A stretch of DNA of 64,000 nucleotides, taken from assembly GCA_018221105.1 (NCBI GenBank), contig JAAOYA010000008.1, forward strand, positions 64,648 through 128,647, written 5' to 3'. The notes under the pieces were generated by a model. The model searched no databases. It was not told the origin of the DNA and saw only the letters and a list, made by a program, of their open reading frames with translations. Of the stretch, positions 17,535 to 45,623 are shown piece by piece; the stretch's first letter is position 1, and every line of letters starts with the position of its first letter. A program made the position numbers and the translations under genes. Source of the DNA: Candidatus Woesearchaeota archaeon. Its GTDB lineage: Archaea > Nanobdellota > Nanobdellia > Woesearchaeales > JAAOYA01.

Positions 17535-18317
17535 ATGTATTATAAATTCGAAAAAGGAAAACAAAAAGCACTTATAGAGAAAGCTATTGAAAAAGCAGGT
17601 TCTGAAAGAAAATTAGCAGTTAAAATACAAATCCCTAAAGGTTCTTTATACGCTCTCAAGTTTGAAAAAACGAATTTATCAGAAAAGAACCTAAAAAAAC
17701 TCGTGCAATTTTTAGGCATAAAAAATAAAGAAGAACTGAACATTAGAGAAGTTCTCTCAACAAACTGGGGACAAATAAAAGGAGGGAAAAACTTAATCAA
17801 AAAGAAAAAAGATGAAGGCACCATGACTGAAACAATAGAAAAACTCAAAAAAGCCAGTTCGACAAGAATGACAAAATGGCATAAAAATATGAAAGAGAAT
17901 CATTTTGAAAAATATCATAAGTGGCAGTATGAACGTTTCAAAAAAATAGGAGGCGGTTACAAGTATAAATTAACTAACGGAACAAAAGTTAGAAACTTAT
18001 TAGAAAAAGAAGTCGGTGATTTTTTAATAAAACATTTTCCGAAAACAAATTATGAACCATACTTAAATATTGATGGAAAAGCTTATTTTCCAGACTTTTT
18101 ATACAGAAATGTGATAATAGAAGTTACAGAGTGGAAAAACCCATCAAAAGAAAAAATCAGTCAATTACAAAAAAAGCTTGTAGACTATCAAAAAAAAGGT
18201 TATACAGTTTGCTTTTTTATCCCCTATAAATACAGAAAGTTTTATAAAATAATTGAAAAATACCAAATATCTGCTCTACACAAACTAAAAGAATATATAA
18301 GTGCCTCTGTAGCTTAG
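17535..18317 (+). CDS. hypothetical Lys-rich protein with C-terminal PD-(D/E)xK-like nuclease core
   Basis: C-terminal FPDFLYRNVIIEVTEWK resembles the PD...(D/E)xK catalytic core (Hjc/Vsr-like); the N-terminal domain is unrecognised. Confidence 0.3.
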   Translation: MYYKFEKGKQKALIEKAIEKAGSERKLAVKIQIPKGSLYALKFEKTNLSEKNLKKLVQFLGIKNKEELNIREVLSTNWGQIKGGKNLIKKKKDEGTMTETIEKLKKASSTRMTKWHKNMKENHFEKYHKWQYERFKKIGGGYKYKLTNGTKVRNLLEKEVGDFLIKHFPKTNYEPYLNIDGKAYFPDFLYRNVIIEVTEWKNPSKEKISQLQKKLVDYQKKGYTVCFFIPYKYRKFYKIIEKYQISALHKLKEYISASVA

Positions 18318-18426
18318 ACATGTTTTGCAATTGTAAAACGTGGAGCAATAGGTAGAGCGTGCGGCTGTTAACCTCTTTTGAGGGATTGTAACCGCAAGGT
18401 CAGCAGTTCGAGTCTGCTCAGAGGCG
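18303..18426 (+). tRNA. tRNA-Asn (GUU) with two introns (about 28 nt in the D-loop, about 20 nt at canonical 37/38)
   Basis: Acceptor GCCUCUG/CAGAGGC, D-stem GCUU/GAGC interrupted by acauguuuugcaauuguaaaacgugg (self-complementary hairpin), anticodon arm UGCGG-CUGUUA[intron]A-CCGCA, T-arm AGCAG-UUCGAGU-CUGCU, discriminator G. 124 nt pre-tRNA gives 76 nt mature. Confidence 0.65.
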
Positions 18427-18436
18427 CCTTTATTTT

Positions 18437-18532
18437 GGGCCCGTAGCTTAGTCCGGTGGAGCGCACGACTGATAACACAGTCTAACTGTGACTGAAATCG
18501 TGAGGTCCGGAGTTCAAATCTCCGCGGGCCCA
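18437..18532 (+). tRNA. tRNA-Ile (GAU) with 22-nt canonical intron
   Basis: Acceptor GGGCCCG/CGGGCCC-A (conserved archaeal tRNA-Ile), D-arm GCUU-AGUCCGGUG-GAGC, anticodon stem CACGA/UCGUG with loop CUGAUA[intron]A, T-arm CGGAG-UUCAAAU-CUCCG. Confidence 0.75.
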
Positions 18533-18568
18533 TTCTAAAACCTTAAATAAAGTTATGATATCGTTTTT

Positions 18569-20125
18569 TTGATGAAGGTAGAGCAAGTCACTAAAACTGG
18601 TTCTGTTGATTTAGCGCTTGACACCATTAAAATTGGCAAGCAAGCGTTAGTTTTTGTCAATACCAGGCGTAGCGCTGAAAAAGCAAGTGAGGACATTGCA
18701 AAACAAATAAAAAGTGATCAAACGCCTGAACTAGCAGATAAAGCATTGAAAGCTTTGACTAGTCCAACACGCCAATGCCGACGCTTAGCACTAGCTTTGA
18801 GAAAAGGTGTGGCATTTCACCATGCTGGCCTAACGAGTTCTCAGCGTGATTTAATAGAAGAAAACTTTCGAAGTGGCAAAATAAAGATTATTGCTGCAAC
18901 ACCAACACTAGCCTTCGGGCTAGATTTGCCAGCTTTTCGTACTATTATTCGCGACGTTAAACGTTTCGGCCAAACAAGTTGGGGTCTTAGCGATATTCCA
19001 GTGCTTGAATACCATCAAATGGCAGGTCGCGCCGGGCGGCCAGGCAAAGAAAAGTTTGGTGAAGCAATAATCGTGACAACAACACCTGAGGAAGAAGAAC
19101 GCGTCACAGAAAAATTCATTTTGGGTGACGCTGAAGAAATTTATTCCAAGCTAGCAGTAGAGCCAGCACTGCGAATTAGCCTATTATCACTTATTGCAAC
19201 ACAAATTATTAGGACAGAGCCTCACATTAAAGACTTTTACGAGAGAACATTTTGGGCACATCAGTTCAAAGACACAAAAAAACTTGAAAGCATTTTAGGC
19301 AAAGTTTTAGGATTGCTTTCAAAATGGGAATTCGTAAAAACAGAAAGCACAAGTCGTGATTTTGTTGACGCTAATGAGTTAACAGGGAAAACTGTTAATG
19401 CAACACTACTGGGAAGGCGCGTTTCACAACTTTACCTTGATCCCTTAACAGCACAATACTTAATTAATGGCTTATCAAGAGCTGACAAAAAAACCAAGAA
19501 CGTGTTTTCACTATTACAACTAATAAGTTGGACACTAGAAATGAGACCATTACTTCGCGCACGCCAAAAAGACATGCAATTAGTAACAGAGACAATAGTT
19601 GAAGAAGAAGAAAACTTATATTGCAAGCCTCCAACAATGTACGATTTTGAATACCAAGAATACTTAGATTCTGTAAAAACTACAATGTTTTTTAATGATT
19701 GGATAAACGAACAAGACGAAGAATACCTATTAGAAAATTATGACATAAGACCAGGAGAAGTAAGAAGCAAGATAGACACTGCTGATTGGATACTATACTC
19801 ACTAGAAGAAATTGCAAAACTACAAAAACAACACAATCAAGTAAGTGAAATAATTAAGCTACGATTACGACTAAAGCACGGCGCAAAAGAAGAACTACTA
19901 GCACTATTACAACTACGCAACATTGGACGCGTGAGAGCGCGAAAAATGTATTCAAACAACATCAAAACATTAAAAGATGTCAAAAAAGTCGCGCTACCAA
20001 CACTACAACAACTCTTAGGAAAACTAATAGCACTCGACATTAAAGAACAAGTAGGCGACAAAACAATTCCAGTAAAAACAAACAAGCGCAAAGGACAAAA
20101 AAACATCCAAGACTACAAAAAATGA
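18569..20125 (+). CDS. Hel308/Ski2-like helicase, C-terminal portion only (RecA2, winged-helix, ratchet and HLH domains; no RecA1)
   Basis: Begins at helicase motif IV (ALVFVNTRRSAEKASE). Contains motif V (ATPTLAFGLDLPAF) and motif VI (HQMAGRAGRPGKEKFGEAII), then Hel308-type C-terminal domains. No Walker A or DEAH box anywhere in the ORF or upstream. Confidence 0.65.
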   Translation: MMKVEQVTKTGSVDLALDTIKIGKQALVFVNTRRSAEKASEDIAKQIKSDQTPELADKALKALTSPTRQCRRLALALRKGVAFHHAGLTSSQRDLIEENFRSGKIKIIAATPTLAFGLDLPAFRTIIRDVKRFGQTSWGLSDIPVLEYHQMAGRAGRPGKEKFGEAIIVTTTPEEEERVTEKFILGDAEEIYSKLAVEPALRISLLSLIATQIIRTEPHIKDFYERTFWAHQFKDTKKLESILGKVLGLLSKWEFVKTESTSRDFVDANELTGKTVNATLLGRRVSQLYLDPLTAQYLINGLSRADKKTKNVFSLLQLISWTLEMRPLLRARQKDMQLVTETIVEEEENLYCKPPTMYDFEYQEYLDSVKTTMFFNDWINEQDEEYLLENYDIRPGEVRSKIDTADWILYSLEEIAKLQKQHNQVSEIIKLRLRLKHGAKEELLALLQLRNIGRVRARKMYSNNIKTLKDVKKVALPTLQQLLGKLIALDIKEQVGDKTIPVKTNKRKGQKNIQDYKK

Positions 20126-21629: not shown

Positions 21630-21730
21630 GTCCCCGTCGTCTAGTCGGATAGGACGCAGGCTTGCGGAAACAAAAAACAAGTTTTTGTTGCAATAAGCCT
21701 GTAACCGGGGTTCAAATCCTCGCGGGGACG
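21630..21730 (+). tRNA. tRNA-Arg (GCG) with 28-nt canonical intron
   Basis: Acceptor GUCCCCG/CGGGGAC-G, D-arm GUCU-AGUCGGAUA-GGAC, anticodon stem CAGGC/GCCUG with loop UUGCGG[intron]A, T-arm CGGGG-UUCAAAU-CCUCG. Confidence 0.6.
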
Positions 21731-38298: not shown

Positions 38299-38453
38299 AA
38301 TCTTTAATTAACTAGTCAATTTCTCAATCAGAACAGTTTTTGCCCTCTTTTTACCGTTTAGTTTATAAATGATTAAATTTTTCGCTACTTGAAGAATAGT
38401 TTCTAATGACTGTTTTTTACATATTTACAAAAAATCAATTAGAAGTGAAAGCT

Positions 38454-39689
38454 ATGAAAGCATTTGAACAACTCGGTATTGAAAGCTCAATACTTAAGGC
38501 TTTAGAGAACAAAGGTTTTGATAGTCCTACCCATATCCAAGAAAAAGCCATCCCGCACATTTTAAAAGGTGAAGATGTTGTTGGACAGTCCGAAACTGGC
38601 AGTGGCAAAACTTTAGCTTTTGGCGCTGGAATAATACAAAATATCAGAAGAGGACAAGGTATTGGAGCTTTAATATTAACCCCGACTCGCGAGCTTGCAG
38701 AGCAAGTTAGCAGTGCACTACAAAGTTTTTCAACGCTCAAACCTTTAAAAATCACAGCGGTTTATGGTGGTGTTGGCATCAACCCACAAATTAATAGTTT
38801 ACAAAAAGCTGATGTTGTCGTTGCAACACCCGGCAGGTTATTAGATCATTTAGAGCGCAGAACAATTAACCTGTCAAAAGTACAAATACTTGTTTTAGAC
38901 GAAGCTGACAGGATGGTTGACATGGGATTTATTGACGATGTAAAAAAGATTATAACACAATGTCCTAGAAAACGTCAAACACTACTTTTTTCTGCAACAC
39001 TCTCACAAGATATCAAAAACATTGAACAACGATTCATGCACAATCCAATAAGAATCAGCGCACGACAACACGTTGATCCAACAAAACTAACACAAAGCTA
39101 TTATGATACCAACCAAAAAATGAAGTTTTCACTTTTAATACACTTGTTAAAAAATGATTTATACTCCTCAATACTAATATTTTGCAATACTAGACGCCAA
39201 GTAGACTTTCTAACGAAAAATTTAACACAACAACAAATTAGCGCAGTGCCAATTCATGGCGGTTTCACACAAGCTAAAAGAAGTGATTCAATGAAAAAAT
39301 TTCAAACAAACAAATCAAACATTCTGGTTTGCACTGACGTCGCTGCTAGGGGCTTGGACATTCCAAACGTTTCACACGTTTACAATTATGACTTGCCACA
39401 AGACAGCAAAGAATATATTCACCGCATTGGCCGAACAGCCAGGGCTGGAAAAAAAGGCAGTGTTGTAAATCTTGTAGCTGACCGTGACCACGACAATTTT
39501 TCTAGTATTATAACAAGTCATAGAGAATTAAAAATCACTCGTTTAGCACTACCACAATTTGAAAAGGTCACCATTAAAGATTTTAAAAAAACCAAGAAAA
39601 CATTTAAAGGCAAATCTTCTTTTACTTCTCAAAAACCTTCTTTTAAAAAAAGAAGTTTTCACAAGCCACGAAAACACTTTAACCGTTAA
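38454..39689 (+). CDS. DEAD-box ATP-dependent RNA helicase
   Basis: Q-motif FDSPTHIQ, motif I GQSETGSGKT, motif II VLDEADRM, motif III SAT, motif VI HRIGRTARAG; basic C-terminal tail. Confidence 0.85.
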   Translation: MKAFEQLGIESSILKALENKGFDSPTHIQEKAIPHILKGEDVVGQSETGSGKTLAFGAGIIQNIRRGQGIGALILTPTRELAEQVSSALQSFSTLKPLKITAVYGGVGINPQINSLQKADVVVATPGRLLDHLERRTINLSKVQILVLDEADRMVDMGFIDDVKKIITQCPRKRQTLLFSATLSQDIKNIEQRFMHNPIRISARQHVDPTKLTQSYYDTNQKMKFSLLIHLLKNDLYSSILIFCNTRRQVDFLTKNLTQQQISAVPIHGGFTQAKRSDSMKKFQTNKSNILVCTDVAARGLDIPNVSHVYNYDLPQDSKEYIHRIGRTARAGKKGSVVNLVADRDHDNFSSIITSHRELKITRLALPQFEKVTIKDFKKTKKTFKGKSSFTSQKPSFKKRSFHKPRKHFNR

Positions 39690-43580: not shown

Positions 43581-43769
43581 GTCACATCCCCCACTTATTT
43601 TTGTACAATTTTACAATTATAAACCTTCGTATACTCAAAAAGTTATTTTACAATATAACTTTTTGGATATGTTGTTTCTTTTGATTGTGTATCATAATAA
43701 CTTATATATAAATGTTTTGCAATGTTCGTCAAACATAATTTTAAAAATAATCACAAAAACCCATTAAAA

Positions 43770-45623
43770 ATGAATTATTTTCCATTTGAAAAACTACGCT
43801 TACACCAAGATGAGCTCTTAGAACACGTAAATTTAGCAATTAAAGAAAAAAACAATCTTTTAGTGCACGCTCCAACAGGCCTTGGAAAGACTGCAGCAGC
43901 ACTGGCTCCAACATTAAAAGAAGCTATAAAAAACAATAAAAAAGTGTTTTTTTTGACAGGTCGCCACACACAACACAAAATAGCTATCGACACTCTTCGT
44001 CTAATAAACCAAAAATTGAAAAAACCATTAAAAGCTGTCGATATTATCGGAAAAAAATACTTGTGTGCTGTGCCTGGCATTGAAGCTCTTTACAGCAGTG
44101 AATTTGCAGAATATTGCAAAAAAGTACGCGAAGATGACAAATGCGAATACTATTCTAACACGAAAAAAGCCAACAAGCTTTCAATAAAAGCACAAAAAAT
44201 TCTTGGCGATATTAAAGGACAAATTCTTGACACTGAACAACTCTACGAGTTAGCACAGCAAGAAAAACTGTGCCCGTACGAGTTAACATTATCATTAGCA
44301 GTCAAAGCTAATGTTGTAATTGCAGATTATTTTTACTTGTTCAACCCTACTATTAGAAATAATTTTTTATCAAAAACCAATCACTCTCTAGAGGACAGCA
44401 TAATTATTGTTGATGAAGCACACAATCTACCTTCAAGAGTTAGAGACTTGCTCACTCACTCAATAACTACTAATTCTGTAGCACGAGCTATTAAAGAATG
44501 CAAAAAATATAATCATTTGACAGCTTTAGAAATATTAGAACAATTACAAACGGTTTTAGAAGAACTTGCAAAAAATGTTAGTGCAGAAAAGCTCGTCACA
44601 AAACAAGAATTTAGACAACAAATCAATGCTATTGGCGATTATGATGAAATAATCGGTGATTTGGATTTTGCAGGAGAGCAAATTCGCGAATTGCAAAAAA
44701 CTTCTTCAACAGGAGCTATAGCTAGTTTTTTAGAAGCATGGAATGGCAAAGATGAAGGTTTTGCACGAATTTTGGAAGTTCGCCAAACAAAAGAAAAACC
44801 TGTAAATTTTTTGTGGTACAAATGTTTAGATCCATCAAGTATCACAAAGCCTGTTTTTGACGAGGCTTCAAGCAGCATTTTAATGTCCGGCACTTTAACA
44901 CCGACTAGCATGTATAAAGATTTGCTTGGCATCACTAAAGCTAATGAGGTTAGCATGAAAAGTCCTTTTCCAAAAGACAACAGGTTAAACCTTATAATTC
45001 CAGAGACATCAACAAAGTACTCAACTCGCTCTGACGCACAGTACAAAAGAATTGCGCAAATAGTCTCGCAAATAACTAACAGTGTTCCAGGAAATAGTGC
45101 TGTGTACTTTCCTAGTTATTTAGTGCGTGATGATATTTACAAACATTTGCACTCGCTTTCTAAAAAGACTACTTTTTTAGAGGTTCCGAATCTTTCTAAA
45201 GGAGAAAAAATTGCAATGCTAGAAAATTTTAAAGAGTACAAAAAAACAGGTGCATTACTTTTAGGTGTTGCAAGCGGAAGTTTTGGTGAGGGAATTGACC
45301 TTCCTGGCGATTACTTAAAATGTGTTATTGTTGTTGGACTACCTCTTAGCAGGCCAAATTTGGAGACTCAAGAGTTAATAAAATTTTATGATGATAACTT
45401 TGGTCGAGGTTGGGATTATGGTTACTTATATCCTGCAGTCAGTAAGGTCTTGCAAGCAGCTGGTCGTTGCATTAGAAGCGAGACTGATAGGGGTGTTATC
45501 GTGCTTTTAGATGAGCGTTTTGCTTGGCCACAATACCAGCGTTGTTTTCCAAAAGAGGTTGATTTTAAGATTACAAAGCTTTTCGAGGACAGAATCGATA
45601 AATTCTTCAAAGAAAAAAAGTAA
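43770..45623 (+). CDS. xpd: XPD/Rad3-family 5'-3' DNA helicase (FeS domain)
   Basis: Walker A HAPTGLGKT, FeS Cys cluster (C..C..C..C between motifs I and II), DEAH box VDEAHNL, motif VI AAGRCIRSETDRG. Confidence 0.85.
   Translation: MNYFPFEKLRLHQDELLEHVNLAIKEKNNLLVHAPTGLGKTAAALAPTLKEAIKNNKKVFFLTGRHTQHKIAIDTLRLINQKLKKPLKAVDIIGKKYLCAVPGIEALYSSEFAEYCKKVREDDKCEYYSNTKKANKLSIKAQKILGDIKGQILDTEQLYELAQQEKLCPYELTLSLAVKANVVIADYFYLFNPTIRNNFLSKTNHSLEDSIIIVDEAHNLPSRVRDLLTHSITTNSVARAIKECKKYNHLTALEILEQLQTVLEELAKNVSAEKLVTKQEFRQQINAIGDYDEIIGDLDFAGEQIRELQKTSSTGAIASFLEAWNGKDEGFARILEVRQTKEKPVNFLWYKCLDPSSITKPVFDEASSSILMSGTLTPTSMYKDLLGITKANEVSMKSPFPKDNRLNLIIPETSTKYSTRSDAQYKRIAQIVSQITNSVPGNSAVYFPSYLVRDDIYKHLHSLSKKTTFLEVPNLSKGEKIAMLENFKEYKKTGALLLGVASGSFGEGIDLPGDYLKCVIVVGLPLSRPNLETQELIKFYDDNFGRGWDYGYLYPAVSKVLQAAGRCIRSETDRGVIVLLDERFAWPQYQRCFPKEVDFKITKLFEDRIDKFFKEKK

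Follow-up and report, generated by a model that had tools for sequence, protein, structure and literature searches.

The stretch of DNA analysed here (64,000 nucleotides of contig JAAOYA010000008.1 from a Candidatus Woesearchaeota archaeon, hereafter the window) carries on its plus strand, at 18572-20125, an intact gene for the C-terminal half of the archaeal DNA-repair helicase Hel308 (Hjm), whose product begins inside the second motor domain (RecA2) and has no RecA1 domain. We put at roughly 85% the probability that the Hel308 gene underwent an ancient fission into two unlinked genes, in an ancestor shared by a large part of Woesearchaeota (Nanoarchaeota/Nanobdellota, DPANN), and that the present gene is the C-terminal product of this split. 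As judged from the sequences, the motor would most likely be built from two proteins that assemble in trans. The break lies inside RecA2 and not at the boundary between RecA1 and RecA2, and the split is found clade-wide in Woesearchaeota, being no peculiarity of a single genome.

The window DNA has a G+C content of ~34%. The open reading frame (ORF) is intact to position 20125 and encodes 518 amino acids (aa) from the TTG at 18569 or 517 aa from the ATG at 18572. The 517-aa form is also the NCBI gene call (MBR9677072.1 / GOV04_02945, product "hypothetical protein"), located on a contig of 326,968 bp. The features of the gene are the following, with residues numbered as in the 517-aa translation and conservation referring to 64 homologues:

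18572-20125, plus strand: coding sequence of the Hel308 C-terminal half, 517 aa, comprising RecA2 without its first two strands and the winged-helix, ratchet and helix-loop-helix (HLH) domains.
18647-18670, plus strand: motif IV, LVFVNTRR, residues 26-33; F28, N30 and T31 are invariant or near-invariant.
18812-18832, plus strand: the Hel308-specific motif IVa, AFHHAGL, residues 81-87; F82, H83, H84, G86 and L87 are invariant.
18896-18919, plus strand: motif V, ATPTLAFG, residues 109-116; an intein insertion site in some homologues (e.g. P0122).
19016-19045, plus strand: motif VI, QMAGRAGRPG, residues 149-158; Q149, G152, R153, A154, G155, R156 and P157 are invariant.
19061-19339, plus strand: winged-helix domain 3, residues 164-256; Pfam HTH_61 (PF20470) at 26.1 bits (cut-off 24.3) and a structural match.
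19511-19885, plus strand: ratchet domain 4, residues 314-438; Pfam PF21280 (Helicase_dom4_arc) at 111.6 bits (E = 3e-32), with the invariant ratchet-helix Trp406.
19904-20053, plus strand: helix-hairpin-helix domain 5, residues 445-494; weak HHH matches, with GRVRARK at 452-458, of which G452, R453, R455 and R457 are invariant.

In addition to these features, Pfam Helicase_C was found at residues 21-159 (E = 1e-13), and the Pfam scan detected no DEAD or ResIII domain in the 517-aa protein. Alignments to Pyrococcus furiosus Hjm (2zj2, residues 228-681, E = 7e-86) and to Archaeoglobus fulgidus Hel308 (2p6r, residues 244-686) both run through to the C terminus, and the AlphaFold model of the C-half (mean predicted local distance difference test score, pLDDT, 84) gives template modelling (TM) scores of 0.70-0.73 against the Hjm and Hel308 structures in Foldseek. 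The best NCBIfam score, to NF002654, is 450 bits, below the curated equivalog cut-off of 887. Pfam, the PDB and NCBIfam all assign the protein to Hel308, in its C-terminal 70% only. Every C-terminal feature by which Hel308/Hjm is defined (COG1204; NF040935, NF002654, NF001308) is present in the window protein, whereas the RecA1 domain with its Q motif, Walker A, Ia, Ib, DExH and SAT motifs is missing from the polypeptide. The string ANELTGKT at residues 272-279 fits the Walker A pattern AxxxxGKT but is a chance match in a non-conserved linker. The initial annotation, which had recognized the RecA2-to-C-terminal portion of Hel308 with motifs V and VI, the winged-helix, ratchet and HLH domains, and neither a Walker A nor a DEAH box, is borne out by the translation, by these domain and structure matches and, as to the absence of RecA1 from the locus, by the search of the window described below. 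Its statement that the ORF starts exactly at motif IV needs correction, the start being 25 residues before LVFVNTRR.

The truncated form is conserved. Among 5.8 billion proteins, the 120 90%-identity clusters nearest to the window protein share 52-57% identity with it at 95-100% query coverage, measure 496-578 aa and lack RecA1 without exception; they belong mostly to Woesearchaeota, and the named members are Woesearchaeota or Nanoarchaeota. In a second, filter-free search of 1.84 billion 50%-identity representatives, RecA1 was again absent from all of the 25 best, several of which reach ~1,000 aa only through an intein. The closest full-length Hel308 proteins (P0149, P0146, P0151 and P0155) first appear at 44-48% identity. 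Among 80 loci on JGI metagenome contigs, 71 were split and nine full-length, all nine at no more than 48% identity, so that the conservation in related genomes that had been proposed as a check is confirmed. The persistence of this architecture across the clade at ~55% identity implies long-term purifying selection. The alignment of the 64 C-halves (~54% pairwise identity) contains more than 100 invariant columns, including FHHAGL, TPTLxxG (T110/L113/G116) and QxxGRAGRP, and also W406 and GRVRAR. The arginines of motif VI (arginine fingers) contact the ATP bound by RecA1 and complete the ATP site, and their invariance argues that the C-halves still work with a RecA1.

These data bear directly on the choice, left open initially, between a split gene and a truncated relic, that is, a pseudogene in the making that has lost its N-terminal part. 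A relic would account for the missing RecA1 and for an NCBI product that is only a hypothetical protein. It is difficult to reconcile with an intact ORF that shows 95-100% coverage against 120 homologues of like size, with the presence of all family-invariant residues, or with an architecture that is clade-wide at ~55% identity. Degradation of motifs V and VI, the expected sign of a pseudogene, was not observed, both motifs being invariant in the 64 C-halves. A relic is in our opinion very unlikely, and a split gene is supported by the conserved truncation and the invariant motifs as well as by the partner family, the fixed junction and the pair of halves in one metagenome-assembled genome (MAG) described below.

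Inteins of ~500 aa are found in many Hel308 relatives, either after 'TPTL' in motif V or near motif VI (~114/115 and ~150/151 of the query). The carriers include proteins of the split type (P0122, P0124, P0126, P0135 and P0138) and of the full-length type (P0160, P0161, P0167, P0172 and others). The intein of P0122 has the hallmarks C...HN followed by S, and the window gene is without an intein.

Candidates for the missing half were sought with a profile built on the N termini of the four nearest full-length proteins, which retrieved more than 100 standalone proteins of 219-227 aa with DEAD and ResIII domains. When named, they are called "DEAD/DEAH box helicase [Candidatus Woesearchaeota archaeon]". 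The alignment of these N-halves shows invariant Q, PTxSGKT, DExH and SAT motifs, with DEIH as the form found in the family, and GKT, DExH and SAT are kept in 104 of 106 sequences. The AlphaFold model of one N-half (pLDDT 91) fits residues 1-221 of Hjm with a TM score of 0.91, a root-mean-square deviation of 2.1 Å and 48% identity; the NCBIfam score is 293 bits against the cut-off of 887. Among the GTDB species representatives (one genome per species) the N-half profile has 568 relatives. In the best 80 of these loci the stop codon falls within 15 residues of the same end point in 76 cases (0-2 residues in the 12 rows examined), the remainder being two proteins with tails of 23 and 65 residues and two unsplit genes of 726 and 729 aa. 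By their labels the organisms belong to Woesearchaeota, Nanoarchaeota, Nanoarchaeia or Nanobdellota, apart from some evidently mislabelled ones, and the complete chromosomes CP010425.1 (GW2011_AR15, N-half at ~904.7-905.4 kb) and OZ246410.1 are among the sources. The suggested search for a partner ORF of ~200 aa was thus successful in that a standalone family of ~220 aa exists in the same taxa, and unsuccessful within the 64-kb window.

Several observations were made on the N-half loci. Typical Woesearchaeota-type N-halves occur in MAG records titled 'uncultured Methanosarcinales archaeon', including the complete OZ246410.1 (774 kb), the label being evidently wrong (L024-L026, L037, L042, L046, L048, L050, L052-L054, L069-L071, L080, L081, L083, L084 and L093). 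Three genomes, among them GW2011_AR15, encode a further complete helicase of ~640-666 aa on the minus strand, within ~4 kb of the N-half gene (L079, 14374-16293; L087, 12668-14665; L089, 7484-9448). It relates to both half-profiles, matching the hidden Markov model (HMM) of the C-half in RecA2 only (E = 1e-24 to 4e-31), and is probably a Ski2-like or Lhr-type paralogue. The neighbourhood was annotated for one N-half lineage, from Rifle groundwater (L004-L013, N-half P0343), in which the gene lies between iPGM and a pair of archease and RtcB (tRNA ligase) genes, with a LAGLIDADG-type ORF after RtcB.

The two families fit together end to end. The N-halves end with '...DDWRPVKLxKGxYxDGxIEF', and the C-halves continue directly with 'K[IV]E..T....LALDTIK.GKQALVFVNT[KR]R'. 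When both are aligned to the full-length relatives and Hjm they abut with neither overlap nor loss. On the 739 positions of NF002654 the N-half occupies 1-218 and the window C-half 223-719, and the halves are complementary in the same way on NF001308 and NF040935. Mapped on Hjm, the break falls at about residue 217/218, some 20 residues past the start of RecA2, and its site is the same throughout the group. Domain 1 of Hjm comprises residues 1-197 and domain 2 residues 198-399 (PMC2636818), which places the cut inside RecA2. In the AlphaFold models the N-half keeps the first two beta-strands of RecA2 as a hairpin, and the C-half opens with the loop in front of the helix preceding motif IV. This arrangement suggests that the two proteins may be held together by strand complementation.

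The position of the junction is also informative as to whether the two products are rejoined into a single polypeptide, either by a split intein or by trans-splicing of the mRNAs. Rejoining by a split intein is known for DNA polymerase B of N. equitans, and inteins are common in the Hel308 family, many of them large and located at motif V or near motif VI. An N-intein is roughly 100 aa and a C-intein roughly 35 aa in length. The N-halves, however, stop no more than 15 residues past the homologous end in 76 of the 80 best loci, and the C-halves start ~2-35 residues before the homologous segment; their N-terminal extensions are short and carry no intein signature. The junction, moreover, is at neither of the intein insertion sites of the homologues. 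Since there is no room for an N-intein or a C-intein and the junction lies off the intein sites, protein trans-splicing is unlikely. In favour of rejoining at the level of the mRNAs, trans-splicing of tRNA halves does occur in Nanoarchaeota (PMC3491384); complementary RNA elements, for which no search was made here, are not known for protein-coding genes. We hold rejoining in either form to be highly improbable.

Both halves were found in one Woesearchaeota MAG, GCA_003695265.1, which encodes a C-half of 546 aa (P0087, RFII01000066.1) and an N-half of 221 aa (P0295, RFII01000020.1). The halves are not neighbours: no partner was found within 10 kb in the window, at 78 standalone N-half loci or at 71 split C-half loci, and the genes flanking the N-halves and those flanking the C-halves differ between lineages and gave no clue to the partner. 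The assemblies of the C-halves P0032 (JAUSCS01), P0014 (JAQTRH01), P0114 (JAHJEP01 and JAHJKC01) and P0028 (JABHCO01) are not represented among the best 80 N-half loci.

The window itself was searched in six-frame translation, with filters off, using an HMM of the N-terminal ~230 residues of the closest full-length relatives. No Hel308 N-half was found in the 64 kb; the HMM matched, weakly, only two genes:

38406-39689, plus strand: DEAD-box helicase, a complete gene with SGKT ... DEAD (E = 4e-6).
43722-45623, plus strand: XPD/Rad3 helicase, a complete gene with DEAD_2, HBB and Helicase_C_2 domains.

Regular-expression scans of the window for a P-loop with DExH/D returned the same two helicases only. 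Both genes are complete, and neither is related to the missing half. None of the N-halves listed lies on the 326,968-bp contig of the window. The N-half P0368 (MBR9699175.1) belongs to the same accession series as MBR9677072.1, but it was rejected as the partner because at a distance of ~22,000 accessions it appears to derive from a different genome.

Some of these results, together with others, weigh against a two-gene Hel308 of single ancestry. The N-half of the genome in question was not located, the search having covered the 64-kb window. The only pair of halves found, that in GCA_003695265.1, lies on two contigs of a MAG, so that a binning error is possible. The neighbour-joining tree of 109 50%-identity representatives has the shape of a star with long tips and does not prove that the split arose once; a few full-length proteins fall near the split cluster and a few RecA1-less ones among the full-length proteins. 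Finally, no experimental precedent for a working superfamily 2 (SF2) helicase core cut inside RecA2 was found in the literature searched.

Some of the same facts could be taken to mean that the C-half has acquired a new function, alone or with a partner other than the Hel308 N-half, for instance as an ATP-independent DNA-binding, strand-annealing or scaffold protein, the N-half family being unrelated to this function or absent from the genome. The N-half of the window genome was not found in the 64 kb searched, the halves are never linked and co-regulation is therefore not evident, and the annealing activity of Hel308 is modulated by motif IVa (PMC10484726). Nevertheless, motif V and the arginines of motif VI, which couple ATP hydrolysis on RecA1 to movement, are invariant, and this is hard to explain without an ATPase partner. 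Furthermore, the N-half proteins run exactly up to the point at which the C-half begins and keep two strands of RecA2 that on their own would serve no purpose, and one assembly contains both halves. We consider a new function unlikely.

Directly upstream of the C-half gene there are two intron-containing tRNA genes, as stated initially, and a TATA-like box:

18303-18428, plus strand: tRNA-Asn(GUU) with two introns, one of 31 nt in the D-arm (18315-18345, between positions 12 and 13) and one of 20 nt at 37/38.
18437-18532, plus strand: tRNA-Ile(GAU) with a 23-nt intron (Rfam 57.3 bits), ending 39 nt before the start codon and forming the 5' border of the C-half gene.
18543-18550, plus strand: TATA-like box TTAAATAA, read by eye, ~25 nt before the ATG and between the end of tRNA-Ile (18532) and the ATG (18572).

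In its genomic form tRNA-Asn is missed by ARAGORN and gives a partial match of 20.9 bits in Rfam, and after removal of both introns in silico ARAGORN calls a clean tRNA-Asn of 75 nt. Its first exon overlaps the final codons of ORF 17535-18317, the TAG stop of which is formed by the first three bases of the D-arm intron. A CTTTTAAAGAA element resembling the TATA-like box of the window is found ~25-30 nt before the ATG in L097 and L100-L102. A distance of ~25 nt from TATA box to start codon is the spacing expected for an archaeal leaderless mRNA, and inspection by eye suggests that the C-half gene has its own TATA-like promoter and a leaderless transcript.

The order tRNA-Asn, intron-containing tRNA-Ile and C-half gene on one strand is shared by the window and five independent contigs (L094, L097, L100, L101 and L102), the C-halves of which are 54-55% identical to the window protein; the segment concerned is 18303-18572 in the window, 2794-3001 in L094 and 1770-2001 in L097. 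The pair is inverted in L170, and ARAGORN calls a tRNA-Ile on the opposite strand upstream of the C-half in L115 and L151. The 3' half of a tRNA-Ile-like gene was found within 500 nt upstream in seven of 59 split loci, ~0.4 being expected from the density of the motif in all fetched loci. The unsplit Hel308 genes examined have no tRNA gene upstream; in one of these (L167) an intron-containing tRNA call overlaps the 3' end of the gene. The tRNA pair at the border of the C-half is a matter of subclade synteny and no universal feature.

This border also decides whether an error of assembly or gene calling could be hiding an upstream extension, as might be feared with a metagenome-assembled sequence. 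An in-frame TAA at 18548-18550 blocks any upstream extension of the C-half ORF, and together with tRNA-Ile at 18437-18532 it excludes the hidden in-frame extension that had been named as a possible refutation. Two well-formed tRNA genes lie directly upstream, the junction of tRNA-Ile and C-half is repeated in the independent assemblies L094, L097 and L100-L102, and the same truncated length recurs in thousands of contigs. An artefact can hardly be entertained. New function, rejoining, relic and artefact are all much less likely than a split gene.

Other elements were noted around the tRNA genes. The ORF at 17535-18317 (plus strand, 260 aa), just upstream of them, has a weak HTH_3-like N terminus below the Pfam cut-off and a C-terminal 'FPDF...IEVTEWK' that by eye resembles the motif of PD-(D/E)xK nucleases, with no NCBIfam match; it could be a mobile or homing-type gene beside the tRNA genes. 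A third intron-containing tRNA gene is located at 21630-21730 (plus strand, 101 nt, Rfam 46.8 bits) and is missed by ARAGORN. In two NCBI MAGs a gene for a tyrosine recombinase (Phage_integrase) lies immediately upstream of the C-half P0114 (L180, 1-776; L181, 1-224).

Returning to the split gene, the following mechanism can be proposed. The N-half of ~220 aa would contribute RecA1 (Q motif, Walker A GKT, Ia, Ib, DEIH and SAT) and the first two beta-strands of RecA2, and the C-half, apparently transcribed from its own TATA-like promoter just downstream of the tRNA-Asn/tRNA-Ile pair, would supply the remainder of RecA2 (motifs IV, IVa, V and VI) and the winged-helix, ratchet and HLH domains. 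The two polypeptides would associate non-covalently as a heterodimer, the C-terminal beta-hairpin of the N-half probably docking into RecA2 as its missing strands. Such a heterodimer would restore the ring that encircles single-stranded DNA as well as the composite ATP site, to which RecA1 contributes the P-loop and RecA2 the arginines of motif VI. The complex may then act like an ordinary Hel308, with 3'-to-5' translocation on DNA and the processing of forks and recombination intermediates. It is also conceivable, though rather doubtful, that the fission is more than tolerated erosion and that assembly of the two-subunit Hel308 is a control point. The RecA1 subunit of ~220 aa would in that case be a detachable ATPase module tethered by the hairpin, its supply gating the activity or being shared with other RecA1-less partners, and the tRNA-Asn/tRNA-Ile pair would be the trace of a tRNA-associated rearrangement that caused the break.

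No description of a split Hel308 was found in the open-access literature searched. With 450 and 293 bits against a cut-off of 887, neither half is named Hel308 by annotation pipelines, and the genomes of the group are annotated with a 'hypothetical protein' or 'helicase-related protein' and an unrelated-looking 'DEAD/DEAH box helicase'. Surveys from which 'partial' sequences are excluded would score Hel308 as absent from Woesearchaeota. In a 2024 study of Ski2-like helicases in archaea, sequences had to cover no less than 60% of the COG profile and 53 "partial" ones were taken out (PMC10946056), and with such filters the split Hel308 would have been missed. If the products do assemble, they represent a natural experiment in which a processive SF2 helicase motor is made of two polypeptides cut inside RecA2 and conserved over a large and old archaeal radiation, and they would offer helicase biochemists a ready system for the role of the covalent RecA1-RecA2 link in coupling. 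As a discrete shared character the split could help to delimit lineages within Nanoarchaeota/Nanobdellota. Split information-processing genes in DPANN are, moreover, no longer confined to a few hyperthermophilic nanoarchaea but extend to a mesophilic group that is widespread.

From motif IV to the C terminus the C-half has its domains and motifs arranged as in the archaeal Hel308/Hjm proteins of known structure (2ZJ2, 2P6R and 2VA8 of S. solfataricus), to which it is 31-36% identical, and it shares with them the ratchet-helix Trp, the RxRAR motif of domain 5 and motif IVa, the last described in PMC10484726. The N-half is 44-48% identical to their first ~220 residues. Those proteins, however, are single polypeptides of ~700 aa, whereas here the coding is shared between two unlinked genes, with the cut ~20 residues inside RecA2.

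Hel308 genes interrupted by inteins are a second point of comparison, an example being the helicase intein of M. jannaschii. The same family is interrupted within RecA2 in these cases too, and some intein carriers are also split and RecA1-less. Inteins, however, are excised to give one polypeptide and are inserted at motif V or near motif VI, while the split lies upstream of motif IV.

The split Hel308 falls into a class already recognized in reduced DPANN genomes, that of split protein genes. Those of N. equitans and Nst1 include reverse gyrase (NEQ318/434), a 'large helicase-related protein' (NEQ003/409), alanyl-tRNA synthetase and others (PMC3655853; PMC6349945). As in the present case, information-processing enzymes of a reduced DPANN genome are encoded by two unlinked ORFs, and for several of them the split site is conserved (PMC3655853; PMC6349945); here, in addition, a tRNA pair borders the C-half. 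The gene is a different one, although NEQ003/409 may be Hel308 or Lhr, and the split extends over hundreds of Woesearchaeota species as opposed to one or two Nanoarchaeales genomes. Unlike the reverse gyrase of N. equitans, in which the split falls between the helicase and topoisomerase modules, Hel308 is cut within the helicase motor itself.

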